Shown piece by piece: positions 25,826 to 59,254 of a stretch of DNA of 64,000 nt. The position numbers were made by a program, and so were the translations under genes. Origin of the DNA: a virus. Lineage: Duplodnaviria; Caudoviricetes. The stretch is from the IMG/VR virus record IMGVR_UViG_3300023048_000001, positions 110,627-174,626 of that record. One strand, 5' to 3'. Numbering within the stretch: position 1 is the stretch's first letter; every line of letters starts with the position of its first letter. The notes under the pieces were generated by a model. It ran no database searches. It was not told the origin of the DNA and saw nothing but the letters and a program-made list of their open reading frames with translations.

Positions 25826-26106
25826 TAGAATTCTTTAGGATAATGGAATGTCTTACAGTTCTTATAAGAATCCTGTGGTGTATCGCCACCATACCATTTA
25901 TCGTTAAACCTTGTGTACCACTTGTCAGTTGGCTTGCCATCCCATTTGGTCTTGCTGATACGTGGCTTCTCATCAGTCGTGAATGGCACTAGACGTGATT
26001 CATCAGGCATCATGGGGATGATATGATCATCATTGACGGTCATTGGAATGACCTTAGTATCAGTAATGGCATCAGCCCATTTGTTTAAGAAGTCTTTGAT
26101 ACTCAT
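25825..26106 (-). CDS. hypothetical protein
   Basis: 93 aa, coupled stop/start. Confidence 0.65.
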   Translation of the reverse strand: MSIKDFLNKWADAITDTKVIPMTVNDDHIIPMMPDESRLVPFTTDEKPRISKTKWDGKPTDKWYTRFNDKWYGGDTPQDSYKNCKTFHYPKEF

Positions 26107-27322: not shown

Positions 27323-28170
27323 CGGGCTGAGAATAGACCCTGACACGTTGATACTTTAGTTTGGATTATGGCATCTTGCGGATGCTTTCCCACTTTTCCA
27401 CTACAACCATCCTTCCGAATGCATCATAGTATATCAACATAGCAGCCTTATTTAAGTGGTGGCATTTCCACTGTCACCGTAACCTATTCGGCATGTCCTA
27501 TTCAGTCTGCCTTGCGAGCAGCAAAGGGTTCGACCCCATCCTTGCAATTCTTTACCAACATTCATCGGCCTTGCGAGCTTCCGAATGACTCTATTGTCTT
27601 ACGACTAGAGCATTATGCTATTTTCAGTTACGACCGAATCCGTCTTTGCGTTTTTTCAAGGTTGGATTTGAACCAACGTATGATCGTTTAAGAGACGATT
27701 GCTTATCCACTAAGCTACTAGTTATCCCACTAAGGTCGAGCGGATTCATAGGTCCATACCCTTTTGGGGTACAAAATTCTATCCGACCTCATCTGCTTCT
27801 CACCCGCTAAGGTTACACTCGCAGTTCGTTTCACGACTCTTTCAAGCCATTAACAATGTATAAACGCATTCGTCCGCTAAGACTCACACCCTCATACTAC
27901 CAATTCATCATCCACTGGTTCAACGTTAGACCGGCTAGAGGTTTCTATTCCTCTCATCACTCACCGATTGGCCTGTGATGGTTTTAACCGCATTGAATTC
28001 CAATATATCTCCGAAAGCTTCCGAAGCCAGAGCGTTCCACTCTGTGATATGTTGGCTTTTATAAACGAGTCCATTTTCATGGTGGGACGCTGGTAGGCGC
28101 ATTCCCGTTTGACACCTCACGGTATCTTATCTCTCCCTCATAACCCTTTCGAATTATGAGGTACTACACA
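27323..28170 (-). ncRNA. giant structured ncRNA, GOLLD-like
   Basis: ~850 nt without a credible ORF, own promoter, many GNRA-capped stems, embedded tRNA, located in a tRNA cluster; family call from memory of GOLLD architecture. Confidence 0.65.
27654..27724 (-). tRNA. embedded tRNA-Lys(CTT)-like domain with disrupted acceptor stem
   Basis: D-arm GCTT/AAGC, ATCGT-CTCTTAA-ACGAT, GTTGG-TTCAAAT-CCAAC; no good acceptor stem or CCA. Confidence 0.7.
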
Positions 28171-28491: not shown

Positions 28492-28566
28492 TGGTACTCT
28501 GTACGGGTATCGATCCCGTTTCTGCTGGGTGAAAACCAACTATCCTAGCCACTAGACGAACAGAGC
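28492..28566 (-). tRNA. tRNA-Glu(TTC)
   Basis: Cloverleaf, loop TT-TTC-AC, T-loop ATCGATA, CCA. Confidence 0.88.
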
Positions 28567-30549: not shown

Positions 30550-30870
30550 TCAACGACCATAATCTTCCTTCGGAATCATACCTTCCTTACCGGGAATCAA
30601 CTGAAACTTATCATCAATGGAATTGAAGTACTCGGAACGGTTGCAATTGAGGCAATTACGTTCCTTACGATAAACCGATCCCGGCTGATTGCCGCCCATG
30701 GTTCTCTCACCCGGAAGCGTTTCAGCGGTATTACCTTTGTATAGGAATCGACCAGTCATCCCACCATACCAATCATGGAATCCGATTGAACAAAGGAATC
30801 CCTGATCATGTGAGAAATGGACCAGAAGAAAGAAGCCAATGATGAGGACTAAAGCAATGATAATGGACAT
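30550..30870 (-). CDS. membrane-anchored Zn-binding hypothetical protein
   Basis: N-terminal TM, LCSIGFHDW...CLNC. Confidence 0.65.
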   Translation of the reverse strand: MSIIIALVLIIGFFLLVHFSHDQGFLCSIGFHDWYGGMTGRFLYKGNTAETLPGERTMGGNQPGSVYRKERNCLNCNRSEYFNSIDDKFQLIPGKEGMIPKEDYGR

Positions 30871-30877
30871 ATGGGTC

Positions 30878-31186
30878 TCAGTATTTGAGTGTGATTTCAG
30901 TGTAGGGATTAATATCTGTCAAAGCTTCGAAGATAAAGAATCTACCAAAGCTACATACTGTAATGATTTTGAAGTTGGGTTCATCGGAGTGATTACAGTA
31001 GGTAAACTCACTCAGGACGACACATAAAGGCTTCGGACCATTCTTAAGAGGAAAGACATGGTGATCTAACTCGTTGGTGTCTACAGGCAGAATGGGAACC
31101 GTAAAGGTCTGTCCTGCCTTTATATTTGCACGGGTGAAACATCCAAAACCATGAATGGATGAATCATCTATGAAGAAATCTTTCAT
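30878..31186 (-). CDS. SET-domain methyltransferase
   Basis: SSIHGFGCFT, YCNHSDEPN, EITLKY motifs. Confidence 0.85.
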   Translation of the reverse strand: MKDFFIDDSSIHGFGCFTRANIKAGQTFTVPILPVDTNELDHHVFPLKNGPKPLCVVLSEFTYCNHSDEPNFKIITVCSFGRFFIFEALTDINPYTEITLKY

Positions 31187-32370: not shown

Positions 32371-32444
32371 GAACTGTGATGGGATTCGAACCCACGATAC
32401 CTTCCCTTCCGGGTGAGTCGCTTAACCATCAGCGTTCACAGTTC
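32371..32444 (-). ncRNA. anticodon-less tRNA-like RNA
   Basis: GAACTGTG/CACAGTTC, D-arm CGCT/AGCG, perfect T-arm; anticodon arm reduced to CCC-GGAA-GGG. Confidence 0.65.
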
Positions 32445-36404: not shown

Positions 36405-36482
36405 TGGTGGCCAGAGGTGGATTCGACCCACCATCTACCGGTTAAAATACCGGTGATTTTGAACCGCTTAAACTATCCGGCC
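36405..36482 (-). tRNA. Lys-like tRNA with 8-nt anticodon loop
   Basis: GGCCGGA/TCTGGCC-A-CCA; ACCGG-TATTTTAA-CCGGT; T-loop GTCGAAT. Confidence 0.7.
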
Positions 36483-37779
36483 ATTAACTTGTGAAACTAT
36501 TTATGTATATTAAACTAGTTGTGAAATTAAAGCAAGGGATTCTTTCGATCAATTACTTGAAGTTCAATTTCATCAAACTTTGAGCCCCATCCACTAAAGA
36601 TGGCATCTGGTTCTTCACCAGTTAGCTCAATATAAGCCTTACGAATGGCTTGACGCATTGATAAATCTGCACCGGGAGGAACTTCAACACCATCTACGGA
36701 GCCGATCTTGCATTCCCATACGAAACGTGTACTATCTAATACTGTATCAGTCATACATTATCCAGTTTAATATTCTTTGAAGCTTCAAATAATTCATCTT
36801 CGGTATTATAAAAATTACCTGTTTTAATTAGAAGTGCTTGTAGCTCACGTTCATTGTACGTTTCGGCAACGAATCCACCATAATAGAAGATGGTTCCGAT
36901 GAGGTGTGCAATTTTCTTATGATCAGGCTGGGTGATCATGGAAGCTAGTGAGCGAATGTATGTTGAGGTATGAGGGCCAAGTGTTGTCCCAAGATCGATA
37001 CCATCTTTCTTGAGTGCATCGGCCAATTCTGTTGCGATAATTGTAGCTGATAATCCTTCGGCGCTCATGCTTAATCTTCCTTTAAAAATTCTGGTGCAGT
37101 TTTCATAGATCATTTAACCTTTTGACTTCAGTAATTGCGTTGTTCCAGCCTTCACGATAACCTCTACGTTCTGCCATCCATTCAAGACTGATTGGTGCAC
37201 AAACTTCAAGACCGATAGGCTTTGGTAGTTCGATGATTTCGTAATTAGCAGCCATGTAATCGAGTGTATCTCTTACCAAGGTGATAAGAGCATCACGATC
37301 AGCTTTCGATCCTTGAATTTTTGCTAGAGTGAGGCTTTCACTCATACTCATTAGTTGAAGTTTACTCATAATTATCCATTAATAGCAAGATTGTTTCCTA
37401 CCTATGAAGCATACCAAGTGTATACCCTTCATACGTTCATTATAACATTGAAGTTATGAGTAGCGGAAACACTCTCTACAGTAGACCTTCTCAGGTCGTC
37501 GCTGAGGCTCGTTACCGTTCCGACTCCCTCAACCTATCTAACGCATTCTACTTTATGCGCTTCGGTTTACTTTAATATGTGATACCAAGCTTTTCTATTT
37601 GATCTTTACCATGAACTGTAAATTCTTTTCCATTATGCATGGTAATAATATACTCATGATAAACAGCAGTTGATCTTAATTCAATACTAGAAATGCTATT
37701 AGGATTAATCCAAATCTGCATATCTTTACCGCCATAATTTGCTAGAAATCTTGATGTCAATCTAATAAGCTCAGTCATG

Positions 37780-39221: not shown

Positions 39222-39318
39222 TGATGCTAGGAAGAAGGGATTCGAACCCTTGGTTTGATGTTATCGCACATCCGCTCTTTAAGGCGGAACACTTTAATCC
39301 TCTCGGTCACTTCCCGCA
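39222..39318 (-). ncRNA. Ser-body tRNA-like RNA, 8-nt loop, bulged acceptor
   Basis: TCCGC-CTTAAAGA-GCGGA, long variable arm, AAGGG-TTCGAAT-CCCTT. Confidence 0.6.
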
Positions 39319-39325
39319 TATTAAC

Positions 39326-39400
39326 TGGTGCCCTGACGTGGTTATCCTCCACGGTTGCTTCCCTAAGCGGGAAGTGTTCTTATATCTAAACTATCAGGAC
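39326..39400 (-). ncRNA. tRNA-like RNA with non-canonical elbow
   Basis: GTCCTGA/TCAGGGC-A-CCA; T-loop AGGATAA; D-loop lacks GG; CTTCCC-GCTTA-GGGAAG. Confidence 0.7.
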
Positions 39401-39406
39401 TGAATT

Positions 39407-39481
39407 TGGTGGCTTGCCATGGTTATTCTCCACGGTCGTTCCTCTGAGTGAGGGTGCTTTAATTCATTAAGCTAGCAAGCC
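39407..39481 (-). ncRNA. tRNA-like RNA with non-canonical elbow
   Basis: GGCTTGC/GCAAGCC-A-CCA; T-loop AGAATAA; 5-nt anticodon loop. Confidence 0.7.
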
Positions 39482-39511
39482 ATAATATAGTACAATTTTT
39501 AAATCGTTAAA

Positions 39512-39832
39512 TCAAGCGTCTGATTCGTTGTCGGTTGTTTCGGTTGTGTTATCGGTCTCATAGAAACCAAGATCATCTAAGTAAACCAATGTTTCAGTCA
39601 CTCCACGCTCTGTGGCTGGTGTAACGTCTGTTGTGTTTTCTTCTTCGGATTCAGGAATTGAGAAGATAATTTTAATACATTCTTGTAGTAGATCGACATC
39701 AGTTGCACCGCATACTACTGCACCAGCTAATTGGGTAGCAATCTCATCGCGAACTTTCTTCTTAAACTTCAAACCGTTTACTTTTTCAATATTGTTAATA
39801 GATGCTTCAATTACAGTAGGAATAGCGTTCAT
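39512..39832 (-). CDS. hypothetical protein, acidic tail
   Basis: 106 aa. Confidence 0.65.
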   Translation of the reverse strand: MNAIPTVIEASINNIEKVNGLKFKKKVRDEIATQLAGAVVCGATDVDLLQECIKIIFSIPESEEENTTDVTPATERGVTETLVYLDDLGFYETDNTTETTDNESDA

Positions 39833-41511
39833 TTGTAACCTTGATTATGAATTAATGATACCAATCAACACCATTATTGTCAACAATATCTTCAGCTTTC
39901 TGCTTACTAATACGTTTGACACTTACATCTACAATGCTTTTAATCTCTTCGGCACGATGCTTTGCATACTGCAATGCTTCTTTAGCATTCTTGGATGACA
40001 GCACGATATCGGTCTGCAAGAAGCCATCATCAAACTTAAAAGTGACCTGAAAAGCCAGCATTAGTTTATCTCCGAAATGGTTTATGTGTCATCGCCATCA
40101 CGCTTAAGGCGAACACCCTGACCAAGAAGAATATACTCCATGATAGCGAGCCTTACAACACTTTTCATGGAATGATAGAAAAGACTTCCACATCCCTTGG
40201 TCATATAATTCAGTGCTTCATCACTTGCATACTGTTCCTGTTCAGGCGTAGCAATAGGAAGACTTTTGTAAGCGGTGTAATTAGGGTTCATTACTATTCC
40301 TTAGGTAGGTTTTTGCTGCTATCTAATAGGTCTTGGACACTAAGTAACACTGTTGCATCATTTACAAGGCTACTGTCCATGTTGGCACATAGTATCATTT
40401 CAGCTAGTTCTAATGCAATAGAATGACGAAGATTTTCATCCAGCTTCATCTTAACTCTGGACTCAATTTGATCAAGCGAGAAGATGAAGACTTCTGGATA
40501 TGCTCTATCCATTACCAGTATCTCGTAATTGTATCAATAGCATCAAATATACTGATTTCATGGATTAAACCAACCTGTTGGAATGATGAATAGCTTCATA
40601 AGCTCATCATGTTTTCTGGCCTTTTCAGCCTTCTCTTCATCAAGACGAGCTTTCAGATCAGTATATGTGATACTGAAAGGTAAATCAAGTTCACTTTTGA
40701 AATCCATTAAGAAATTATAGGGGCCATGATATCGATAATTACCAAAATACCTACCACCATACAGGATTGATTCATTATCTATAAGATGCATGATTAGACC
40801 TTGATAGAGAATTTCTTTATTTTACCGCACTTGGAACATTCCTTGATCCACCAATGTGAATCATAGAAATCCCATCCCATCTTACGGTCTTTCCCCTGCT
40901 TGAGTGTTTCACTATAACTGTGATCGCAGAGGCCTAGAATGTACTTCAAAAATAGCAACATAAATTACCTAAATTGATTTATATGTCAAAATTTTATGTT
41001 ATTAACGTGTTTCTTGACTTATAAGTCATCTGCCATAGCCATGGCTTGTTCAATACTCAATAACACATCACTATTGATTAATTCTTTTATATATGCGATT
41101 GCATCCTCATGCCCAAACACTTCACCGTATGGTGTATGAGTAGAAACAATCTTGCATGGGTCTTGATCCATCTTATCGTTGTTAACTAAATTTGTCCAGT
41201 CCATTATCTTTCCTGAATTAAAGAAAGGAGCCTAAAGGCTCCTTTCCATTACTTCTTTTTGCCCTTGGATTCGGACTTGTCCTTCTTCGGCTTTTCAGCC
41301 TTGGACTTGTTGAACTCAGGACCATTCAGCATGTCGCGCCAAACCTTCTTTTCGGCTGGCGAAGTTGCAGTGCGCAGATAGTGACGAACCTGCTTGATGG
41401 AAAGCTGTGCATCAAGTGGACCACGATAGTTCATATCAGAAAAAGCCATTTTGTATCCTTAGTTGTTTAGTGTTGTTGAAGATGATTAGTATATCGAATT
41501 TAAAGTAGATG

Positions 41512-41853
41512 TCAAACGTACTTATAAAACCCATCACTGGTACAGAAGTTAACGCCAGCACGGATCAATTCAAGAACATCATTAGTTGAAAGGGTTGCAA
41601 ACTTGAATTTGTCAACTTCGAAATAGATTTGATCATGTTCGGCAGCAGCAATGACATCTGCATTAGGACTCACTTTAACCTTGTCCAGAATAATTAATGC
41701 ATTAATAAATGCATGCGGATAATAGGTAAAGATATAATCTTCATCTTTACCATGAAGACTTTCGTTATTTTCAAAGAATTCTCCAATATAGACATCAATG
41801 GATTCTTCCTTGTCCCACTTATCACCTTCAAGCGTTTCAATATCAAGTAACAT
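41512..41853 (-). CDS. hypothetical protein
   Basis: 113 aa, DVIAAAEHDQIYF motif common in phages. Confidence 0.7.
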   Translation of the reverse strand: MLLDIETLEGDKWDKEESIDVYIGEFFENNESLHGKDEDYIFTYYPHAFINALIILDKVKVSPNADVIAAAEHDQIYFEVDKFKFATLSTNDVLELIRAGVNFCTSDGFYKYV

Positions 41854-41863
41854 GTTAGTTCCG

Positions 41864-43000
41864 TTATTCGGTTTCTGTTAGTTCGGGATCGTCGCCAATT
41901 CCGAACTCCTTATAATGCTTGATCATCCATGTCTTGTAGTCGTTCTCCTTCCCAAGGTAAAGGTTCATCGCAAGGCTGAAATACAGACGGTCTAGCTCTT
42001 TCTGTCCAGCAATCGCATAATCCTTTCTCTCTAGATCACTATTTGAATTATAGAACCCAACAACATACTTGTCAATATTGCGATAAATTGCCTTGACCTT
42101 GAGTTCCATTTCGTCAATGAGTTTGAGCATATATTCATCATACGAGAAGTTAGCACGGGCATCATCGTGGCCTTCGTTCACTACCACAATGAAGCGCTTC
42201 TTAGGTGAGTTAATATCATCCTTAAGATTGTGTAGTGAACAATACCAGTCAGTCTTGTGCTTCGTTAGAACACCCTCAACACCAATGATGTAGCCCTCTA
42301 CTCCCGTCTTTGCTGGAATTGAATCAACAAATGCTGGAACATCATCAACCTTATAGCTCTTTACCAAATAATCAAGAACAAGTGGATCAAATGAGACCAT
42401 TGTCATTACGACTTCATTATATGCCAGTACTTTACCATCATCACGATCACGAACATGGAGAACAGTCAGCTTATCTTCCTGATAAGGAAGAACAATACGG
42501 TGTACCGGCGAAGTCCATTCCAAAGAAACAGAGAATTTAGCCTGTTCCATGTATTCTAAATATTTTAGCAATCTATCATTTTCGCCATTGAACAAAAATT
42601 CCATGGCAGCATTTGCCTGCTCTGAAGCTAGCGATGTTTTGCTCTTCAGATATGTGTTTCCATGGATCATGTAAGTGGTCATAATGCTACCATCCATCTT
42701 ATCCATGACAATATCTGCCTTGGAGAAGTCGATGTCCATAACCAAAGGATTTTCCTTAAAATTAAAGAATTTTCGGGGTGGCAGGGAAGCCAGACGCTTC
42801 ATACGTCCATCTTCCATTTCAAACATGATACCACGAGCCTCAAGAGCCGAAGGCTTCAGGAAGTCGCTATAGGAAGCTAGACGATAGTTGAACACACGGA
42901 AGGTAACACCTTCCATCTGATGTTCTACGATATAAAATGGTGAGTCAGGAGCATGAATAAGCTCCATCAACTCATCATATAGAGTTGATTCATAATGCAT
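41864..43000 (-). CDS. rnlA: RNA ligase 1 (T4 Rnl1 family)
   Basis: FNYRLASYSDF, EARGIMFE, KFFN, motif I KMDGS, LKSK, EGY, KTDWY. Confidence 0.92.
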   Translation of the reverse strand: MHYESTLYDELMELIHAPDSPFYIVEHQMEGVTFRVFNYRLASYSDFLKPSALEARGIMFEMEDGRMKRLASLPPRKFFNFKENPLVMDIDFSKADIVMDKMDGSIMTTYMIHGNTYLKSKTSLASEQANAAMEFLFNGENDRLLKYLEYMEQAKFSVSLEWTSPVHRIVLPYQEDKLTVLHVRDRDDGKVLAYNEVVMTMVSFDPLVLDYLVKSYKVDDVPAFVDSIPAKTGVEGYIIGVEGVLTKHKTDWYCSLHNLKDDINSPKKRFIVVVNEGHDDARANFSYDEYMLKLIDEMELKVKAIYRNIDKYVVGFYNSNSDLERKDYAIAGQKELDRLYFSLAMNLYLGKENDYKTWMIKHYKEFGIGDDPELTETE

Positions 43001-43649
43001 GATTTGATTCCTTTCAGGAATTTTAATTAAAGGGTTGGGGTAGTGATCGGCGGTGGCGGTACGAGATTAATCCATGACTTACCGAAATCTTCAAGTGGAT
43101 TAACGCCAAAGCTCAGATGGCGATTGGAAGTTCCAACATTTGAGAATGTTGCCTTATGGCTTTCAGCGCTTACACAGAAAGCATTCAAGCGCATAAGATG
43201 CGCGAGCTTCTTGGTAAGTTTCTCAAATTTGGGCTTGGGAACAAACTTGGTGTTGCTCAGGTAAGTAGTAATTTCCTGATGCTTCTTGACCACATAGCGG
43301 TTCAGATCGATAACGTTAGACATATGAGATATAGCCTTGATAGAAAGTAATAAAAGGGACCACCAAACCCAAATACAGTTAATGACATCATCACTGCAAA
43401 TAGGAACCAAAGAACAGAATCAATTTTCTTCATGGGGGTATCCCGGCTATGCTAATATTTAGCAAGAATACTCAGTAAAGATCGTCATCCTTAGGATATT
43501 TTTCCTCATGTTCGACGCCAACATTTACAATAAATGTCGGAATAGCTACAAATAGGATGAAAGCTCCTAGGTACCACAGAAAGAATGTAAGCATAATGTA
43601 TTATCATCCGTAATGCAATCGTTGTCTTTGTAGATGCAGCACAAACCTA

Positions 43650-44057
43650 TTACAATAAATTCCATAGAATTACATTATAATAATCAGACCAATCCTTAGC
43701 TTGATCTGGAATTTGAGGGAATTTATTTGAACGTTTTATTTCATCGCCCTTTTCCAAAGCTTTATAAGCCTTCTTAATTAACTTATACATCTTCTTGCAT
43801 TTTTCTTGATCATAATAATCATTGAGGTTCATCAGGCCGCTACTGGCGATGGATTTAGCACTAGTTAATCCGGTACTGTATGATGCGGTAACAACAATAA
43901 ATTCATCGAATTCTTTCATAACTTTAACTGAAAGATTTTCATTAATATCTACTATATAATAATTTAAATGACTAGAATAGGAAATCCAACGCCATGAACC
44001 ACTCATGACTTTGTAGTAGAGCATATCTATTCCAGAATTTTCAGTGATCATATCCAA
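43650..44057 (-). CDS. hypothetical protein
   Basis: 135 aa. Confidence 0.65.
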   Translation of the reverse strand: MDMITENSGIDMLYYKVMSGSWRWISYSSHLNYYIVDINENLSVKVMKEFDEFIVVTASYSTGLTSAKSIASSGLMNLNDYYDQEKCKKMYKLIKKAYKALEKGDEIKRSNKFPQIPDQAKDWSDYYNVILWNLL

Positions 44058-44410
44058 ATTTTTCCATCTTTGAGTTTTACATTTTTAGATTCATGAACAG
44101 GACTTCCCGTGTTCACATCGATGAATGTGTCACCGTGATAAGGATTATAGCGAACTTGAGTGTTAAATACATCCTTGTAGATGTTTCTAAATGCATCAGT
44201 ATCGATGGGTTTGATATATCTGTCACATACCACATAGGCATGAACATTTTTATGTTTGGTTCTCAACACCTTCTGGCGGCCAACTTCATACACTTTAAAT
44301 GAAACATTATGAGCATATAGTTCGTCCAGATGTGCAATCACCTTCCCGCGATATTTCACAGAGAAGGTGTTTTTATGCAGGTTTCTATAAATGTAGAATT
44401 TAGCGGACAT
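44048..44410 (-). CDS. conserved phage hypothetical protein
   Basis: YRNLHK..FSVK..GKVIAH, GRQKVL...KNVHAYV, YNPY. Confidence 0.75.
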   Translation of the reverse strand: MSAKFYIYRNLHKNTFSVKYRGKVIAHLDELYAHNVSFKVYEVGRQKVLRTKHKNVHAYVVCDRYIKPIDTDAFRNIYKDVFNTQVRYNPYHGDTFIDVNTGSPVHESKNVKLKDGKIWI

Positions 44411-44591
44411 CAATTCAATTTCTTTACCTGACCGCAATGGGTGCAGTAAATACGTGCCAGACGGATGTTATATGGATAAATGTATTCAAGTGTTGATTTT
44501 CACTCGTTTAGTGAAATCCTGATCAACATGCTTTACAAATTCATGTTTGCAGAACCAGCTTCTAATAAGATTGATCATAAAATTCTCAAAT

Positions 44592-44738
44592 TGGTGGAGC
44601 ATTAACGATTCGAACGTCATCAGCCCTACCACCTCTGATACGTCATGGACAGTAGTACTCCTGACACCATCATCTTTATCAGTCAGTTTCAAGGGCGGCG
44701 GTTTAATGTCGCTGGGTTTTCCAATTCCCTATTACTCC
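44592..44738 (-). ncRNA. expanded tRNA-like RNA (147 nt)
   Basis: GGAGTA/TGCTCC-A-CCA, D-arm GGG-AATTGGAAAA-CCC, branched variable domain closed by GCCCT/AGGGC, T-arm TTCGAAT. Confidence 0.7.
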
Positions 44739-44746
44739 AAAACTTT

Positions 44747-44871
44747 GCTTTCGGAAGGATTCGAACCTTCTTGTCCATTCCTCAGGATAAGCTCAGCCTT
44801 AACAATTATGTTCCACGGAATCGAACCGTGAGCCTTATCTTTTCGGGTCGGTCCCCTAGAGTTTCGAAAGC
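44747..44871 (-). ncRNA. tRNA-like RNA with two T-arms
   Basis: GCTTTCG/CGAAAGC; inner CACGG-TTCGATT-CCGTG inside GATAAG/CTTATC; outer GAAGG-TTCGAAT-CCTTC. Confidence 0.7.
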
Positions 44872-44877
44872 ATAAAT

Positions 44878-44996
44878 TGGCAGATGTGGATGGATTCGAA
44901 CCACCGACAGCTATGTCATATTGTCCATTCCTATACGGGAGGACTCAACATTATGCACCTCTCCACGAGGCCACTCTTCCACTGAGTTACACATCT
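44878..44996 (-). ncRNA. expanded tRNA-like RNA (119 nt)
   Basis: AGATGTG/CACATCT-G-CCA, canonical D and T arms, 5-nt anticodon loop, ~48-nt variable hairpin. Confidence 0.75.
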
Positions 44997-45412
44997 AAAA
45001 CTTATTGTGGCATATCCTTTACCACGTTATCCCAAGAATCTCCGTCCGGGTAAACGATATTATCATCTATATCGTCATCATTAATCAAGCCCAACTTTTG
45101 TTTTAATTCAGTAGGATCGATTTCAGGATTATGGTCAATGATAAATTCTTTAATCATTTCTTCATGGTTGTCTCCACCTAACTGTAACAGAAAGGCGAGG
45201 AAACTTACATCTACATAAACTATTTGCATCATTATTTCTCTGGATAAATTAATTCACCAATCCAATCATCACCGGGACTTGAAAATGATCCACCCATACC
45301 TTTAGGTCCATTCCACTTCCAGAAGCCGCTTTCCATCTTATACCAGTAACCATCCTTAGTTGGTGCTTTAGTCCCTACTGGTGCAGCTTGAAGAAGGCTC
45401 CATGTCACCATG

Positions 45413-45805
45413 TTATTCATCCAGCTTTGCACCCACATATACATTACGGTCTGCAATTTTAAATCCACGGACATCGCTGTTTTCAAGGCCAATGTCAATG
45501 TTTATCATAAATCTAAGACCAGCGGGGAGAAATCTTTCGCCCATAGCGTAAGCTAGGTCGTTGTGATTAACAACAAAATGCTTTCTTGGGTCCAACGCCG
45601 AAATAACGATATATGCCTTTCCACTATCAACATAATCTAGTCGTGCAACAGTCCTGTAGATATGCGATTGTGTAGCGTGATTCATAGCTGCAACGTAACC
45701 GGTTGCATAGGCTAGCTGGGACTCAAGATCATCTGGATAGAGGGCCTTACCATAGGTAATAGAACGCTTGATGATATCTTCCGCTTCAAAAGTCTTATCC
45801 GACAT
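45413..45805 (-). CDS. hypothetical protein
   Basis: 130 aa in operon. Confidence 0.65.
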   Translation of the reverse strand: MSDKTFEAEDIIKRSITYGKALYPDDLESQLAYATGYVAAMNHATQSHIYRTVARLDYVDSGKAYIVISALDPRKHFVVNHNDLAYAMGERFLPAGLRFMINIDIGLENSDVRGFKIADRNVYVGAKLDE

Positions 45806-46157
45806 TTATTTTATCCTTATTCAGAACCATGTACGTATGTGCAGAATTCCAATATCTTGAAATACTATTTGTTCGTTTAAGAATCAAATAGCCTTCCTTA
45901 ACCATCTTACACAGATGCTTATACCTAGGCTCATTTGTATTTGTTTTAGGAAATCCTTCACTATTAACACGCATGTTTCCATACGTGCCTTCAAGGATTT
46001 GTTTAATCAAATTATCACGATAGTCTGCGTATGAGACTCTAGGCTCTATAGGGTCATCAAATCTATACTGATACACAGCAATCTTGCCGCTTTCCCTTCG
46101 CTTAGGCATACGAAGATTGATCTTTTGAATTTGGGTCAGGTATCTACTTCTTGACAT
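45795..46157 (-). CDS. hypothetical protein
   Basis: 120 aa in operon. Confidence 0.65.
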   Translation of the reverse strand: MSRSRYLTQIQKINLRMPKRRESGKIAVYQYRFDDPIEPRVSYADYRDNLIKQILEGTYGNMRVNSEGFPKTNTNEPRYKHLCKMVKEGYLILKRTNSISRYWNSAHTYMVLNKDKINVG

Positions 46158-46165
46158 GTTATTCC

Positions 46166-47359
46166 TTAATAATTACTCATTCTAGTAACAATATTATACT
46201 GGAATGCCCACTTGTCAACCATATTACTCTCATGGTTAGTAGCTGCACGATTAGCACGACCGCGAACCTGTGTGATTCGACGCGATACGTTATTCATTTG
46301 AATTGTCAGGTGACGCTTCTCAACACCAGTTGCATTATATGACTTAACGGACCAGATGGAAGTGGTTCCGCTCTTGCACATATCACGATAAGAATAAACA
46401 CAATGACGCATAGATGTACCTTCAGCCGCAAGTACTTTGGCAGTCTTGATCTGTGTGAATGTCCACCTACGAACGTTCTTCTGATCATCCTTGAATTCGA
46501 ATTCATAGTCAGGCAAATCAATACCTTCCCAAGAATGATCACCCATCACCTTGACACGAGCAAGCTCATAGTGCCAATCCTTCATTTTGTTATGAAGAGT
46601 CTTGATGGTGTAGTTCTTACCCAATGGTGTGAAGTTCAAGATACGGTTAAATTCAGCCCAAAGATAATCGAGAAGATCATTAGTCTTTTCGATGCTATCA
46701 GGTGCATGCATGGAGAAGAATTGAATAACTTCACGCCAGAACTTACCAGAAAGCTCTACGTTGAGCTTCTTCTGATTGAGCTTAGACTTAGCCAGTCTTA
46801 GTGCAACACCGATGCTAGCGCCATAGGAGAGTGCCACAGAGTAGATAACAGCTTCTTCGGGTGTTATGTCATGTGGACAAGTACTGAAAACATGGATTTC
46901 CTTCTTTGTCAGGAAATCCTTGCAGTATTCCCTGTACAGCGAACCACCGCTGGCGAGACAAATCCACCAAGCCCTGAAGTTGTAGAGCGTCTGCTCTTTA
47001 CGCAAAGCAACTTCATTGACAGCGTTACGGCGGCGACGATGGTTTTCATTGTAAGTATGTACTTTTGTAGCAGGAGGATGCTGGTACCATGCAAAATCAA
47101 GGAAGCTAGGAACACGGAACTTCCCGAAGGTGTACTTCAGGAATTCCATCTTCAGCTTTTGGACATCCGAAGACTTCGACTTGGTAGTGAAGAGGTTCGG
47201 ATTATTGACAATCTTGTCTTCGAAACCGGCAGGCACGATTTTCCCATAATCAGGAACATACTTGGTCTTGACTGATCTGATAGCAGTATCAGTCAAGCGC
47301 TGGCGGAACTTGGCTTCGTCTTCTGCGGAATATTCAATTTTCTTTAGTTGCTTAGCCAT
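46166..47359 (-). CDS. PcfJ-like domain protein
   Basis: LAAEGTSMRHCVYSY...TIQM...QVRGRANR. Confidence 0.85.
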   Translation of the reverse strand: MAKQLKKIEYSAEDEAKFRQRLTDTAIRSVKTKYVPDYGKIVPAGFEDKIVNNPNLFTTKSKSSDVQKLKMEFLKYTFGKFRVPSFLDFAWYQHPPATKVHTYNENHRRRRNAVNEVALRKEQTLYNFRAWWICLASGGSLYREYCKDFLTKKEIHVFSTCPHDITPEEAVIYSVALSYGASIGVALRLAKSKLNQKKLNVELSGKFWREVIQFFSMHAPDSIEKTNDLLDYLWAEFNRILNFTPLGKNYTIKTLHNKMKDWHYELARVKVMGDHSWEGIDLPDYEFEFKDDQKNVRRWTFTQIKTAKVLAAEGTSMRHCVYSYRDMCKSGTTSIWSVKSYNATGVEKRHLTIQMNNVSRRITQVRGRANRAATNHESNMVDKWAFQYNIVTRMSNY

Positions 47360-48497
47360 ATCATTCCTATAAAATTTACTGTGCAGCCGCCATTGCCGCT
47401 GCTAGAACACGACGCCATGATGTGAAGTTGATACCATAAAAACTAGCATCAATTGCTCCACGTTCTGCGGCCTCTTCCTCGCCTCGCTGCCAACGCTGTA
47501 GAGCGTAGGTTATGACCATGATGGTGCATTCATCCTCATAACCACAAACCTTCAATTCCTCAAGGCCTGCTGCGATATCGACATTATCCAGATTCACACC
47601 CGGAGTACCATGATGACTATCAGTAAACTGTGCGCGCATGATGATTAACCCGGAAAGACGTAGTGACCAGCGGAATAGCAAATATTTGAGTCGAAATCAG
47701 GACGATCTTCATCATGTTCCATGGTCTGTTCATACTCGTCTCCCTGAATGAAATAAAGGTCAGGAAGATCACCACCAAAATCTGTAGTTGCACTGTAGTT
47801 ACCTTCATAAAGTTGATCATTGAACAAAGCAGTAATCTCTTCGCGTTTGCTGCTATAGTCAACGCCAATAGCATCCTTGATATCAGTGATAACTTGGTCA
47901 GCTTCGTAGTGGCAGTCAGATACAGACATGATAATTTCCAGTTAATTTGGTTTAGATGATTTAGACGATTTAATACGATAGAAAATGTCGATGGGGACAA
48001 TGATAAACCAAACAAATGAATTAAACATCATAGTAGCTGTCATTATCTTTAAACACAGCTTATCAATATCTTCGATTGACATGTTTTGGGTCAACATATT
48101 ACTTTTAAAAGTAATATAACTATTGTTATTAATTCGAAGAGCCATGATTTCTTCTTTACAGATGAGGAAGAGCATAAAATAAACAAATGCTCCGCCAAAA
48201 TAAATCATTAATAGAGTACTCATATTATTACCTTTGATGGGAAGCTATTATAGTAATTTAATTACTTAACATCAAGCCCAATTTATGAAAAGATCAAGCT
48301 GTTTGACACCTTCAACATTACACAGAACAATAGTAGGTGGCTGATTCGGATCACGAAAATGATATTGAATCCACATATCAGTTACGAGGGTATATTTGTT
48401 CCTTTTTTCTTCAGAAAAAGTAACTTCAATATCACCAGATAGTTCCTGACATTGTTTGAGTTCTTCAATCAGTTTTGAGATTTTCATAATCTACCTG

Positions 48498-48842
48498 TTA
48501 GATTTTAGGCTTCTTAACTGGAACTAGTGGAATGTCAAGTGCCTTTTCAGCAGCACGCTTGATGTCTCTTGCGAGATATCCTAACTTATAAAGAGCCGAA
48601 CCGATATTGATAAACGGAAGGACTGCAATGATTGCACGACCTACCAGAGTACCAATCTTGATCTTAGGTGTGTAACCCTTAGACAGACCATTGAGGTAAT
48701 CAGTACGAGCTTCAATATCCAGCTTATATTCTGTGATAGACGTTGCAAGGAACGCTAGTGCAGAGATAAAAAGTGGAACAAAGTAAAAATATAGAACGTT
48801 GTTCTGTGCAAAAGAAAATAGGGTTTCTAGATATATATTCAT
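48498..48842 (-). CDS. membrane protein
   Basis: Two TM segments. Confidence 0.65.
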   Translation of the reverse strand: MNIYLETLFSFAQNNVLYFYFVPLFISALAFLATSITEYKLDIEARTDYLNGLSKGYTPKIKIGTLVGRAIIAVLPFINIGSALYKLGYLARDIKRAAEKALDIPLVPVKKPKI

Positions 48843-49098
48843 TTTATTCCTTAATTATTTGGTTAAGTCTTGCTGGCATCCAGAATGGTACTTCAGGAAT
48901 TACAGTTGTAAAACCACCACCAACACGAACTACACAATCTCCATCGGCATGGTACTTACCAATGTGAAGCTGTCTGAATGGTTCAAACAAATATACAATC
49001 ATTTGCTGATCTTCAGGACGAGTTTCGATAGGAATCCAACGTGGCATGTCTTGAACTGTAAGCTCGTTCATAATTATCCTAAATGCATGATGGGTGGA

Positions 49099-49391
49099 TG
49101 AAGTGATGTTATGGTGTGCTGTTACGCCAAATGCTCTAAGGGTCTTACTGTATATCTTGCCTTATCATATCCCTTACTTTCCGGCAATTTCTTTAAGGTC
49201 TAGGGCTTCGCCCCCAAACCAAATTCAGTAAACAGTGCTTGTTCTTCCCCTGAAGTTATACGTCCCCATGCTGGGATTGCTAGGGTATCGGTTCCTTCTT
49301 GCAACTCATTATAGGAATCAATCAACTTAGTTGATTGACCGAACTTACGTTCTGGCTGCCTCTAAGCCAACCTCCCATAACAACTACTTCA
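49099..49391 (-). ncRNA. orphan ~295-nt structured RNA
   Basis: Promoter TTGACT-N17-TATCAT immediately upstream; 5' TGAAGTAGTTGTTATGG pairs with 3' CCATAACATCACTTCA; many internal hairpins. Confidence 0.65.
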
Positions 49392-49433
49392 AGCCGTCAT
49401 GATACTGGCTTTATAAATCTCAGTCAATACAAT

Positions 49434-49700
49434 AAAAAAACCCGACCTTATATCCGTAGATACAGTGGATCGGGCCGTGTTATTGGTTGTAACCTTTGGT
49501 TCCCTGATGAGAGGTTCCGAGCGGGTAGGTTACGATAGCGCTTACACGCATTTGGTTGTGACTTTACTAACTTTCCCTGCGCATGATATCGAGGAAAGAC
49601 CCGCCGTCACGAAAATGTATTATACTCAGCTTCGGGATGGTCTGTGTAGGCTGGACCGAGCTTCAACGGTATAAATTGTTTATGATGGTTGAACATCGTG
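49434..49700 (-). ncRNA. putative structured RNA ending in terminator
   Basis: GCGGGT/ACCCGC, CTTTCC/GGAAAG, GTAACCT/AGGTTAC; CCCGA...TCGGG-T7. Confidence 0.45.
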
Positions 49701-49705
49701 GGGTT

Positions 49706-49778
49706 TGGAAGCGGGGTTTGGAATCGAACCATTTTAGTTCCGTAGCTTATGAGGCTAGGTCACACCTTGCTCCCCGCA
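49706..49778 (-). ncRNA. initiator-like (CAT) tRNA with degenerate D-arm
   Basis: GCGGGG/CCCCGC, TAGC-CTCATAA-GCTA, TGG-TTCGATT-CCA, CCA end. Confidence 0.6.
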
Positions 49779-49784
49779 ATAATT

Positions 49785-49836
49785 TGGTGTCCGGCTACAT
49801 TTCTGTATAACGTGGCATTCCGTGCCACTACCAGAC
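49785..49836 (-). ncRNA. 52-nt mini tRNA-like RNA
   Basis: GTCTGGT/GCCGGAC-A-CCA enclosing GTGGCA/TGCCAC and TACA-GAAA-TGTA. Confidence 0.55.
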
Positions 49837-50037
49837 ATAATCAGCCCAAGAGATTCCTTTCAGACATCCTTGGGATGTAAGGGCTACATATACTCCTTAC
49901 AACTGAAACGGATTATGACGTTTCTATTAATTATTTGTCTATCACTTTATGGTCCCCAAAATCCCGCAACTCTAAGGATGCAGCTATCCGGTTTCTCAGT
50001 TTTAGTAATTAATGTTACGTACCGATCATTTCAAAAC

Positions 50038-50131
50038 TGGCGGAAGATTGAGGTCACGCTCCCCAAGCGAGATTTGACCTCGCTCCCATCGATTTCAAGT
50101 CGAGTCCAGCACCTCGGCCGGTTAATCTTCC
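50038..50131 (-). tRNA. tRNA-Ser(TGA), 8/4 acceptor/T architecture
   Basis: GGAAGATT/AATCTTCC-G-CCA, loop CT-TGA-AA, long variable arm, 4-bp T-stem with loop AGCGTGA. Confidence 0.8.
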
Positions 50132-50257
50132 ATTTTGTAGATTTATTTATTGCTGTTGCAATAATTTGTCTACAAATAATAACATATTATTTACGATTGT
50201 CAAGCTCTTTATTCAACATTTTCAAGGTTTAATCAATAAACTTGATATTCCTAGACT

Positions 50258-51325
50258 TCATATCTTCCCAACGATCCCTGTCTGATCAGCTTCACCGATC
50301 CACTCAGCCGTGGTATAAACATCATTATCTTCATCACTACGCGAATAGCATGTAAAGCGGTATTTACCGGGTTTGATTTTTGCAGTTTCAAGCTTCTTTT
50401 CGTAGTAATTTTTGTTTCTTTCAGTACATAGTTTTGAAATCATGATGTCATAATATTTCTTGTCTAGCATGGTTACCCACCAAAGATCAGTGCAGAACCA
50501 ACCAGCTTTTTCAAAGCCTTCTTCAGGCTCTACTTCATTGCCGTCATCATAAATTTCACCAATACGAATCTGTGCAGTTTCTTTATTATAGAACCATGTC
50601 GGAGAGCTATTACCTACGCTCTGGTGGAAGATATGCTGACGTGCAAACACATCTGAACGCTGGCGTTGTCCCTTCAGAAAATTAATGGACTCACCATCAG
50701 CACCATCAAGGATACCAGCACTAGTCAGTTCTGAGAAACGATCTGGCCAATCAGAGAACACGACTTCACCAGTGGGGAAATCTACTTCAAGACTGAACTT
50801 AAGGTTGTTCTCACAAGGTTTAGCACCTATTAGGTGAACTTCATTCCCCTTGAAACGAAAGCCAAGCTTAACCGCGCAATCTTCACACCTCTGCTCGTAG
50901 GTGCCTCCAACTGTGAACCATTCTTCACCAGCCAAGGCCTTAGCGAAAAGCTCATTGTCATTAATGATGAGGAAATCATGGATCATGGTATCTATGCTGT
51001 AAATGAAATCTTTTTCATGAACATCAACGTCCTGAAAATCATACTTGCGTGGCTTATCAATATTAGCAAATTGCTTAAGGATATAAACAATTGATAGATG
51101 ATCAGTATCACCAGTCACAATAATGGAACGATCTTTAATGATAGTTTTAATGTGCGTCTTAAGTAACCTCACACCTTTCATAATTTCTTGATGTGGAGTC
51201 AATTTTTCCTTTATCAACTCAAGAATCTCTTCTTTCTCAGGACTATCCAATTCACTAGCTTTTTCTTTAAGAGTTTCAGTTAGCTTATTGAAAGCCTCTT
51301 CAAGCTGGTTTTTAATATCGGGCAT
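50258..51325 (-). CDS. hypothetical protein
   Basis: 355 aa; CEDC, SVGNSSP, FCTDLWW motifs; RBS and promoter. Confidence 0.8.
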   Translation of the reverse strand: MPDIKNQLEEAFNKLTETLKEKASELDSPEKEEILELIKEKLTPHQEIMKGVRLLKTHIKTIIKDRSIIVTGDTDHLSIVYILKQFANIDKPRKYDFQDVDVHEKDFIYSIDTMIHDFLIINDNELFAKALAGEEWFTVGGTYEQRCEDCAVKLGFRFKGNEVHLIGAKPCENNLKFSLEVDFPTGEVVFSDWPDRFSELTSAGILDGADGESINFLKGQRQRSDVFARQHIFHQSVGNSSPTWFYNKETAQIRIGEIYDDGNEVEPEEGFEKAGWFCTDLWWVTMLDKKYYDIMISKLCTERNKNYYEKKLETAKIKPGKYRFTCYSRSDEDNDVYTTAEWIGEADQTGIVGKI

Positions 51326-51629
51326 GATAATCCTTGCGTTAACGGTATAATGTTGTTAAAAGAACTTCTTTTTGTCAAATCGGGTTTCATGGATCATAAG
51401 AAAAATTGGACCAATAATAGCTACAATTATACTCTGAATCAGAAGTTTCTTTTTGAAGAGTTCTGGTTTAAACAAGTAGAAACTTATTTCTACTAAAGCC
51501 TCTCCTACTCCTATGATAAAGAATAAAAGAGATGGTAGAAAAATGAGTAAGAGTGGATTGGTATGCATATCAATTCTCTATAATGAAGGTTACGATTGTA
51601 CACCTTGGGAATTGATAATTCAATGATGT

Positions 51630-51750
51630 ATGTAATTTGGGATTTGAACCCGATAACTCTATATGGACTTATGTAGCGCCGGTCTTACAACGGAGTCGAA
51701 CCGTCTTCTGCCTCGGTAGAGTAAGCTTACACCACAGCTTTCGATTACAT
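51630..51750 (-). ncRNA. tRNA-like RNA with two T-arms
   Basis: ATGTAAT/ATTACAT, D-arm AAGCT/AGCTT, ACTCTA/TAGAGT enclosing GACGG-TTCGACT-CCGTT, outer GGG-TTCAAAT-CCC. Confidence 0.7.
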
Positions 51751-51768
51751 ATAATATGTTATATTAAT

Positions 51769-51856
51769 TGGAGGAAGGCAACAGATTCGAACTGTAACCC
51801 CTTTCGGGGTCGTACCGCTTTCGAAACGGTCCCAATCCCTGACTGGTTTACCTTCC
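51769..51856 (-). tRNA. tRNA-Ser(CGA), 8/4 architecture
   Basis: GGAAGGTA/TGCCTTCC-T-CCA, loop TT-CGA-AA, variable arm ACCCC-GAAA-GGGGT. Confidence 0.85.
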
Positions 51857-51863
51857 TTAAATA

Positions 51864-51968
51864 TGGTCGGCAGAGTAGGACTTTCACCTACAATTGCTAA
51901 GCGTCAACATGTATTCGACTTAGACACCACATTATTAGTGGCGCGTATGATAATTCCGCCATCTGCCG
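51864..51968 (-). ncRNA. Leu-body tRNA-like RNA with enlarged variable arm
   Basis: CGGCAGA/TCTGCCG-A-CCA; loop TAATAAT; T-loop TGAAAGT; D-loop AT for GG. Confidence 0.7.
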
Positions 51969-51974
51969 TAACTT

Positions 51975-52048
51975 TCAGGATAAAGGGATTCGAACCCTTG
52001 GCCGCTTGCCTCGGATGCAATTACTCTACCAGACTGAGCTATATCCTG
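51975..52048 (-). tRNA. Pro-body tRNA with atypical loop AT-CCG-AG
   Basis: CAGGATA/TATCCTG-A, canonical D and T arms, no encoded CCA. Confidence 0.65.
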
Positions 52049-52054
52049 TAAAAC

Positions 52055-52130
52055 TGGCGCAGGGTGGTGGGAATTCTCCACCGTCTCTCCCCTCGATGGG
52101 AGAGTCCTAGGTATGCTAGACGAACCCTGC
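52055..52130 (-). ncRNA. tRNA-like RNA with non-canonical elbow (Glu-like body)
   Basis: GCAGGGT/ACCCTGC-G-CCA; T-loop AGAATTC; 6-nt anticodon loop. Confidence 0.7.
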
Positions 52131-55503: not shown

Positions 55504-56469
55504 TCAGTCAATCTTGTTACATTCGGTCAACCAGTACTGGCGTGCAGTCTGCATAACCTGACCCTGAACACCTCTCCAATCAAATCCACTAGCTGCGATA
55601 GTCTCAAGTTCTTCCTTAAGAATATCATGGGCAATCCATTTCAAATAATCACCAGTCCCATTTGGTAGGATAGGTGTTTCCTGCTCTTTCATTGCCATAA
55701 CACCCTGTTCAAGACGCCATAGAGGAAGAATTTCTTCAACGAGTTCCTTGATTGATGCAAGCTTCTGATCATCGATCTTGATCTTCTGGCCCTTTGTTTT
55801 ATCATTACCCTTGTGAAGCAAACCCTTTGTCTTAAACCAAAGGTCTGAGATTTCAGGATGCTCAACACATTCCCACACGATCCCCTCACCAACACCTTCA
55901 GGAGCGCCACGGAAAGTCGCCCATGGGCAGTTCTCTTCAACTGCTAGAGTAAGGTTAGAAAGAATCTCTGAGGCTGGCTCAGGCGATAGGAAGTCCACAG
56001 TTACCGTGTAGGTGGGAATCTGGTAAATGTTGAATACCTTGTTCTCGTTATCAAATAGATCACGAGGAAGTGGCTGGTACTCGCCATTAACTTTTACCTT
56101 AAAGAGAACCAAATGCTTGTCAAGGTTGACGAGAGCAACAGACTTCTGGATACCGGAGCCACACCACTCACCGTATAGAGTCACATCAGCATCAGCCGGA
56201 AACCCAGCAAATAGTTTCTCAACAGCTTCCTTATGGCTTTCAACGAAAAATGCAAAGCCATAGTTATCGGATTCAATACTGAGGATACGTTCACGCGACT
56301 GTGCTTGTAGCTTACCCGAGGATGTGCGACGAATGCCTGCATTACTACCATGGAGTTTCACGGTACCTTCAAAGGTAAGTGTTGGGAACGGCTGTCCACG
56401 GTTGTTTGAAAATTTACGAACCTTAGAAACGGTGTGTTTGAAAGATTCAATAGAAGAAAACTTTTCCAT
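55504..56469 (-). CDS. RNA ligase 2 family (Rnl2-like)
   Basis: Motif I VKLHGSN, QSRER, YGEWCG, GEGIVW, FKTK. Confidence 0.85.
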   Translation of the reverse strand: MEKFSSIESFKHTVSKVRKFSNNRGQPFPTLTFEGTVKLHGSNAGIRRTSSGKLQAQSRERILSIESDNYGFAFFVESHKEAVEKLFAGFPADADVTLYGEWCGSGIQKSVALVNLDKHLVLFKVKVNGEYQPLPRDLFDNENKVFNIYQIPTYTVTVDFLSPEPASEILSNLTLAVEENCPWATFRGAPEGVGEGIVWECVEHPEISDLWFKTKGLLHKGNDKTKGQKIKIDDQKLASIKELVEEILPLWRLEQGVMAMKEQETPILPNGTGDYLKWIAHDILKEELETIAASGFDWRGVQGQVMQTARQYWLTECNKID

Positions 56470-59177: not shown

Positions 59178-59254
59178 TGGTCCGGCTAGCAAGATTCAAA
59201 CTTGCAACATTCGACTTAGAAGGTCGATGCTCTGTTCAGTTGAGCTATAGCCGG
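59178..59254 (-). tRNA. tRNA-Arg(TCT)
   Basis: Loop CT-TCT-AA, CCA; D-loop GA and T-loop TTTGAAT co-vary. Confidence 0.9.

Follow-up and report, generated by a model that had tools for sequence, protein, structure and literature searches.

tRNA-like elements of the window

The window analyzed here comprises 64,000 nucleotides (nt) of the virus record IMGVR_UViG_3300023048_000001 and corresponds to the last 64 kilobases (kb) of a 174.6-kb contig. Its minus strand is crowded with transfer RNA (tRNA) genes. Among them lie three short elements, c1 (39326-39400, 75 nt), c2 (39407-39481, 75 nt), and c3 (52055-52130, 76 nt), and a 105-nt tRNA-like gene (51864-51968). All four are encoded on the minus strand, as is every adjoining gene. 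Judged from their sequences, c1-c3, and more loosely the 105-nt element, would seem on balance to form part of a conserved family of non-decoding tRNA look-alikes of jumbo phages resembling Xanthomonas phage XacN1.

The minimum-energy structure of each of c1, c2, and c3 is a cloverleaf, with folding z scores of -3.8, -4.0, and -3.7, respectively, and none of 200 shuffles folds equally well. Each displays a 7-base-pair (bp) acceptor stem, a discriminator (A73 in c1 and c2, G73 in c3), and an encoded CCA end, as well as a 5-bp T stem closing with G53-C61 and a 7-nt T-loop. Sequence and folds agree with the lengths, acceptor stems, and CCA ends reported in the first-pass annotation of this DNA, save that c2, correctly seen as a cloverleaf, is 75 and not 76 nt long, one extra 5' U having been included. 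The T-loop reads A54 G55 G56 A57 U58 in c1 and A54 G55 A56 A57 U58 in c2 and c3, the AG(G/A)AT motif noticed at the outset. Their D-loops lack GG; where G18 G19 would normally stand, they have A-U (A18 U19 in c1). The anticodon arm of c1 has the standard 17 nt, with C32-G38 closing a 5-nt loop and a G at position 33; that of c2 presents a 5-nt loop on a 4-bp stem, and c3 has a 6-nt loop.

The 105-nt element ends in A73-CCA and possesses a very long extra arm of roughly 33 nt. Its T-loop is U54 G55 A56 A57 A58, its D-loop is devoid of GG, and its 7-nt anticodon loop carries A33. The D/T part of the change that had been ascribed to it is thus found (G55 A56, no GG), within a gene that extends further than first thought. 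Anticodon loops of 5 nt in c1 and c2 and of 6 nt in c3, as well as A33 in the 105-nt element, likewise fit the earlier description of these loops as 5-6 nt long or lacking U33. None of the four combines a 7-nt anticodon loop with U33 and purine 37, and none has G18 G19 together with U54 U55 C56. By established tRNA biochemistry, 5-methyluridine 54 (m5U54) and pseudouridine 55 are impossible where U54 and U55 are missing, and codons cannot be read where there is no 7-nt loop with a U33 turn. A plus-strand reading of the elements was considered and rejected, since the CCA end, the neighbouring genes, and a tRNA-Glu ancestry (see below) all point to the minus strand.

Standard tools overlook most of these features. 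ARAGORN calls none of c1, c2, c3, and the 105-nt element. The Rfam tRNA model RF00005, whose gathering cut-off is 29 bits, does not match c1-c3 even at E<=10 and gives 29.4 bits for the 105-nt element (51867-51968), just above the cut-off. By score, c1-c3 therefore fall outside RF00005, whereas by their cloverleaf geometry, kept by covariation, they fall within it. YrlA (RF02553) has no match in the window, nor at the element loci at E<=10, and the single weak mascRNA match falls on an ordinary tRNA-Arg and not on the elements. Relatives in the XacN1 and RAS14 records (described below) are unannotated, and no description of such elements was found in the literature on XacN1 or in jumbo-phage surveys. 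As a variant of phage tRNA-like RNA, the elements are genuine, conserved, and hitherto undescribed.

Relatives in other phages

A covariance model search of phage genomes, proposed as a check in the first-pass annotation, did yield homologs. The first model was built from c1-c3 alone. On the 174.6-kb contig it finds only c1, c2, and c3; CheckV completeness of this contig is about 50%, and negatives on it cover about half a genome. The same model detects one relative in XacN1 (AP018399.1, 289169-289244, 53.7 bits) and another in Stenotrophomonas phage RAS14 (OP752703.1, 302428-302502, 51.8 bits), of which phage CM1 carries an identical sequence. These phages are related to the one studied here: according to protein matches, XacN1 is a distant relative, with a 355-amino-acid protein 50% identical, and RAS14 and CM1 are related too, with an RNA ligase (Rnl1) 41% identical. 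Further relatives are found at positions 37333-37407 of a 183-kb IMG/VR contig (G009) and on a 1.9-kb metagenomic contig (L182).

Several shared segments connect these sequences. The anticodon arms of c3 and of the G009 relative are identical over 16 of 16 nt, 6-nt loop included, whereas their acceptor, D, and T arms differ. In IMG/VR, this 16-mer stands in a tRNA-like context only in G009, the other seven matches being unrelated hairpins. The identity indicates that the c3-type anticodon arm is itself conserved and is not a mere leftover. A tRNA-Glu-type D arm is common to c3 and the XacN1, RAS14, and L182 copies, from which it follows that this branch descends from tRNA-Glu. Furthermore, c1 and the XacN1 copy share nine bases on the 5' side of the anticodon arm, and c2 and the G009 copy share their D arm. 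We read c1-c3 and the XacN1, RAS14, L182, and G009 elements as what appears to be one family.

The DNA around the elements is far less conserved. Searched by blastn against 50,697 phage records, the 2-kb stretch around c1 and c2 has no match, the 1-kb stretch around c3 matches only via ordinary tRNA-Gly genes, and the elements as queries return chance or self matches only. With no alignable flank around c1 and c2, and relatives nevertheless found, the RNAs have outlived all detectable flanking similarity. Protein-guided searches of IMG/VR, with the 355-amino-acid neighbour or with Rnl1 alone, revealed no close phage relatives.

Other searches were less productive. A c3-type pattern finds nothing in IMG/VR and five stretches in metagenomes, one of which is the L182 relative and another an unrelated tRNA array (L181, see below). 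A third covariance model, with the D stem added, returned mostly ordinary tRNAs and no new member above 50 bits in 44 large-phage records. Matches to a T-arm pattern in IMG/VR were also collected and discarded: their number is about that of a rough chance estimate, and none is a relative by covariance model.

XacN1 also harbors, at 30865-30936 (plus strand) of AP018399.1, an unannotated 72-nt tRNA-like element directly after tRNA-Tyr, which is present a second time in the other terminal repeat. Its anticodon loop has 5 nt, none of T-loop positions 54-56 holds a canonical base, and its folding z score is -2.8.

Covariation of the stems

Covariation was examined on five sequences, c1, c2, c3, and the XacN1 and RAS14 copies. 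Paired bases occupy 97.5% of the stem cells, and in 12 of 16 pairs both bases have changed. The mean number of such doubly changed pairs is 5.0 in shuffles, slid 3' partners give 2-5, and none of 500 shuffles reaches the observed pairing and double-change values. In the acceptor stem, all seven pairs covary. Thus, c1-c3 are under selection, beyond what chance would produce. Together with the coordinated loop changes described below, the doubly changed pairs bear out the early view of a selected pattern rather than random decay.

The elbow contacts

The contacts G18-U55, G19-C56, and U54-A58 are among the most invariant features of tRNAs. The elbow that they build is read by RNase P, the ribosome, TruB, TrmA, and some toxins, among others. 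T- and D-loops were parsed for 166 tRNAs and tRNA-like genes from this contig, XacN1, RAS14, the IMG/VR jumbo-phage contigs G009 and G027 (the latter 53 kb), L181, and L182, plus one tRNA-Ile from the IMG/VR contig G024.

U58 occurs nine times in this set, in five phage records, and is accompanied by A54 in nine of nine cases. Chance alone would give about 0.6 co-occurrences (Fisher p = 3e-13 over the 166 genes, an upper bound on the strength of the association, as the set includes paralogues, which are non-independent and inflate p values here and below). The coordinated 54-58 swap that had been proposed for c1-c3 is thereby largely supported. The U58 cases also include apparently ordinary decoders. 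In G009, tRNA-Glu(UUC) (42235-42309, minus strand), and in G024, tRNA-Ile(GAU) (L268:1501-1574), both read A54 U55 C56 G57 U58 and keep the GG of the D-loop, the swap being confined to the 54-58 pair. In G027, a Val(UAC) gene (20760-20835) and a Met(CAU)-like gene (26034-26104), both on the plus strand, read A54 G55 C56 G57 U58, and ARAGORN calls neither. The window contributes an unannotated 94-nt tRNA-Ser(UGA)-like gene (50038-50131, minus strand) with the same T-loop (A54 G55 C56 G57 U58). Its acceptor stem has 7 bp and is followed by G73-CCA, its anticodon loop is normal (7 nt), and its extra arm is long. ARAGORN and Rfam (E<=10) both miss it; a strong sigma-70-like promoter match (11/12, 50176-50203, minus strand) lies 45 nt upstream. 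To call the elbow of c1-c3 "orthogonal", as was done initially, is thus too strong, since the same swaps are found in ordinary decoding tRNAs of other phages and the elbow is not unique to the mimics. A54 is accompanied by A58 in two genes, tRNA-Glu(UUC) at 28492-28566 of the window (minus strand) and RAS14 299616-299690. This T-loop, which we take to be of the eukaryotic initiator tRNA type, may represent the ancestor state of the c3 branch.

The inner contact, 18-55, is also changed in a matched manner. D-loops lack GG in 24 of 29 genes with G55 versus 5 of 78 with U55 (p = 2e-14), with the reservation that numbering in AU-rich D-loops is ambiguous and partly a matter of judgement. Such tRNAs are collected on the 6417-bp metagenome contig Ga0307377_10018714 (L181), which carries an array of 22 tRNA genes. 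Of these, 21 have G55, 20 of them reading U54 G55 C56 and one C54 G55 C56. Manual alignment of the D-loops on the 3' side places A at the G18 position in all 21 G55 tRNAs; GG is present elsewhere in the D-loop in four of the 21, and the lone U55 tRNA keeps its GG. Aligned by hand in the same way, A18+G55 fits c1, c2, c3, the 105-nt element, and the XacN1 and RAS14 copies, the fit of the L182 copy being not clear. Three sub-threshold matches to YrlA (Y RNA-like) are seen between the tRNAs of L181.

The outer contact can be paired as U19-G56 in c1 and as U19-A56 in c2, c3, the 105-nt element, and the XacN1 and G009 copies. The D-loop AT can therefore match G55/R56 (R, purine), as had been claimed, in c1-c3 and in the 105-nt element; in the RAS14 copy, the 19-56 part of the match fails. 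An independent example is tRNA-Arg(UCU) of the window (59178-59254, minus strand), which has A19+U56, while tRNA-Arg(UCU) of XacN1 and RAS14 have G19+C56; in this tRNA, which is otherwise normal, the outer elbow pair has undergone a cleanly compensated change. A19-U56 is seen too in a G009 tRNA-like gene with an 8-nt anticodon loop and in a tRNA-Met of G010.

Such recurrence of matched changes is to be expected where compensation maintains the three tertiary contacts. The A54-U58 pattern is weakened by C54+C58 in the XacN1 copy and C54+A58 in the L182 copy. Subject to the caveats on kinship and numbering noted above, these genes show a real coordination of the elbow changes, repeated in independent lineages, and the initial idea of a compensated elbow stands up well and applies to working tRNAs of other phages too.

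Neighbouring genes

The elements lie in two clusters. In the first, 6 nt separate c2 from c1, and 9 nt separate c1 from a third odd tRNA-like gene. This third gene (39226-39316, minus strand) follows c1 directly and combines a long arm and an anticodon loop of 8 nt with a canonical T-loop. Its acceptor stem contains one mismatch, and CCA is missing; the Rfam tRNA model gives it 27.8 bits, below the cut-off. A weak sigma-70-like promoter match (9/12, 39482-39510, minus strand) ends right at c2. Promoter-like sites around this cluster are no more frequent than in shuffles.

In the second cluster, c3 opens a tight tRNA operon and is followed by an ordinary tRNA-Arg(CCG) (51975-52048), the 105-nt element, and tRNA-Ser(CGA) (51769-51856), all on the minus strand and spaced by 6-7 nt. 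Since tRNA-Arg(CCG) lies between c3 and the 105-nt element, 6 nt from each, these mimics sit within a tRNA transcription unit.

A search of Pfam and PHROGs with ten large open reading frames of the window identified a T4 Rnl1-type RNA ligase (41864-43000) and an Rnl2-type RNA ligase (55504-56469), both on the minus strand. Together, Rnl1 and Rnl2 form a tRNA-repair toolkit in a region of tRNA-like genes. PolyA_pol (CCA-adding), RelA_SpoT, and TruB_N domains are all absent from the 174.6-kb contig, i.e. from about half a genome.

Proposed function and alternative explanations

A non-decoding look-alike of the kind favoured above would act as follows. c1-c3 would be cut out by RNase P like the neighbouring tRNAs, and the matured RNAs would adopt an L-shape with a re-paired elbow, in which U54-A58 becomes A54-U58, G18-U55 becomes A18-G55, and G19-C56 becomes U19-A56 or U19-G56. 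They would then act through their acceptor/T-arm half and a specialised anticodon-arm hairpin, most likely as tRNA look-alikes, either decoys or competing ligands, in a phage-host conflict over tRNA. Such a role is favoured by the presence of Rnl1, Rnl2, and many other odd tRNA-like genes in the genome and by the conservation of the c3 hairpin. Escape from host elbow readers such as TrmA and TruB can be put forward, speculatively, as the selected benefit. A more specific version is that of a dedicated class of mimics, in which A54-U58, A18-G55, and U19-A56 were re-coded together, so that L-shape and maturation are kept and the RNAs go unseen by elbow-reading host enzymes and defence nucleases, the anticodon arm serving as a binding hairpin. 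We hold this version to be tentative and rather less probable than its opposite; a specific binding hairpin would explain the 16-nt identity between c3 and the G009 copy.

Several observations speak against a family of non-decoding look-alikes. The acceptor stem of L182 is paired at only 4 of 7 positions, which suggests that this copy may be decaying, and shuffles fold as well as the XacN1 copy does (z = -1.15); some family copies may therefore be in decay. The RAS14 copy has a 7-nt anticodon loop with U33 and an ochre stop-codon anticodon, and it might still decode; it also breaks the 19-56 rule, with C56 opposite U. The family is present in only about five phage lineages. The sole public run with this DNA is a leaf-litter metagenome (a DNA run, probably its source), and no public RNA run is listed with it. 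A decoy, moreover, presupposes a target, and a changed elbow makes a poor decoy for factors reading the normal elbow.

A rival view regards the elements as decaying pseudogenes, i.e. duplicated tRNA genes that have lost their T-loop and anticodon loop and are still undeleted. Anticodon loops that vary in size and sequence among members, the broken L182 stem, the weak fold of the XacN1 copy, and the rarity of the family (nothing in IMG/VR with the c3-type pattern, nothing new with the last model in 44 large-phage records) all suit decay. However, the stem pairs of c1-c3 are all intact, 12 of 16 being doubly changed, the new T-loop is conserved among c1, c2, c3, and RAS14, the elements persist in lineages without residual similarity of flanking DNA, and c3 and G009 share their 16-nt anticodon arm. 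Neutral decay does not make matched changes at 54/58, 18/55, and 19/56, and we regard this explanation as unlikely. Equally placed is RNA-processing punctuation, in which the tRNA shape would be only a signal for RNase P or 3'-end cleavage between RNAs, as in mascRNA-type or mitochondrial tRNA punctuation. Elements placed between genes and tRNAs at tRNA-like spacing agree with it, but the c2-c1 cluster consists of odd tRNA-like genes only and has its own promoter-like site, and a mere cleavage signal would need neither the encoded CCA nor conservation of the new T-loop and of 16 nt of the anticodon arm; we consider it improbable.

The elements could also remain functional in tRNA-like ways. 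The XacN1 copy has G3-U70 with A73, which we take to be the alanine identity set, and CCA ends and perfect acceptor stems are retained. The elements might be aminoacyl carriers for non-ribosomal use, charged via acceptor-stem identity and kept off the ribosome by their elbow and anticodon arm; the model would be the non-proteogenic tRNA-Gly that serves staphylococcal Fem transferases and shows the same kind of elbow change (PMC7826273). Against this, acceptor stems and discriminators vary (A73 or G73, with different first pairs), so that no common synthetase identity is apparent, and such a role seems to us doubtful. Least probable is that they are still adaptors, acting as unusual suppressor or recoding tRNAs for stop or non-triplet codons. 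The RAS14 copy, whose anticodon loop has 7 nt and U33, is called as a stop-codon tRNA in a local ARAGORN run, an amber anticodon triplet lies within the XacN1 loop, and these phages also carry ordinary amber suppressor tRNAs. Nevertheless, the loops of c1-c3 have 5-6 nt or R33, position 37 of the RAS14 copy is a pyrimidine, loops are not conserved across relatives, and c1-c3 are rejected by both ARAGORN and Rfam.

Comparison with known systems

The phage RNAs resemble canonical tRNAs (RF00005) in their 7-bp acceptor, 4-bp D stem, 5-bp T stem, 7-nt T-loop, and CCA end. They also keep G53-C61, purine 57, U8, A14, and a location in tRNA operons. In contrast, c1-c3 lack G18 G19 and U54 U55 C56, and the anticodon loops of the elements have 5-6 nt or are devoid of U33.

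The closest known case is that of the non-proteogenic tRNA-Gly of staphylococci, in which UGC or UGU replaces UUC in the T-loop, no pseudouridine is present, and position 19 is occupied by a (dihydro)uridine. This tRNA serves cell-wall (pentaglycine) synthesis and not translation (PMC7826273). Like it, the phage RNAs have G55, which leaves no pseudouridine possible at this position, and U19 instead of G19, and they too would stay off ribosomal decoding while retaining an acceptor end of chargeable type. The staphylococcal tRNA differs by its U54-A58 pair, its glycine anticodon, its glycyl-tRNA synthetase (GlyRS) identity, and a known partner, the Fem transferases, whereas the phage RNAs display A54-U58, R56, no usable anticodon loop, and no common acceptor identity. 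Set beside the GlyRS identity set, they have no glycine anticodon, and their discriminators are A or G.

The tRNAs of the L181 array share with the mimics the replacement of G18-U55 by a matched A18-G55. Unlike the mimics, they decode in the ordinary way and retain U54-A58, G19-C56, and anticodon loops of normal type; in the mimics, 54-58 and 19-56 are also changed and decoding is lost. T5-type escape tRNAs are phage tRNAs that counter tRNA-targeting defences. The likeness with such anti-defence tRNAs is that of sequence-altered tRNA genes borne by a phage whose genome has tRNA-repair ligases as well. Decoding is retained by escape tRNAs, whose differences lie mostly in the anticodon loop, whereas the mimics are non-decoding, with changes centred on the elbow. 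The tRNA array unit is described elsewhere as a putative anti-defence system (PMC12803027).

As in mascRNA (RF01684) and YrlA (RF02553), the phage elements associate an acceptor and T-arm half with the loss of decoding function. Neither Rfam family matches them, and the Ro-binding module of YrlA is absent. The CCA of mascRNA is gained after transcription, while that of the phage elements is encoded.

These RNAs represent natural, selected alternatives to all three elbow contacts, found in phages in both working tRNAs and non-decoding mimics. They provide a natural test set to distinguish where elbow chemistry is required from where geometry alone is required, and they are candidate scaffolds for orthogonal tRNAs. 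Altered elbows also explain why tRNA finders miss some phage tRNA genes. As XacN1 and RAS14 are cultured phages, mimic function is directly testable.

Other tRNA-like features of the window

A GOLLD RNA (27324-27791, minus strand, 201.8 bits) embeds a tRNA at 27653-27724. A tRNA-like gene at 36405-36482 (minus strand) has a perfect acceptor stem, CCA, G54, and a 6-nt anticodon loop, for which ARAGORN reports a two-base anticodon. Weak Rfam tRNA matches without ARAGORN call are found on the minus strand at 44881-44996 (38.9 bits) and 32371-32443 (32.5 bits), the former holding a large insertion.

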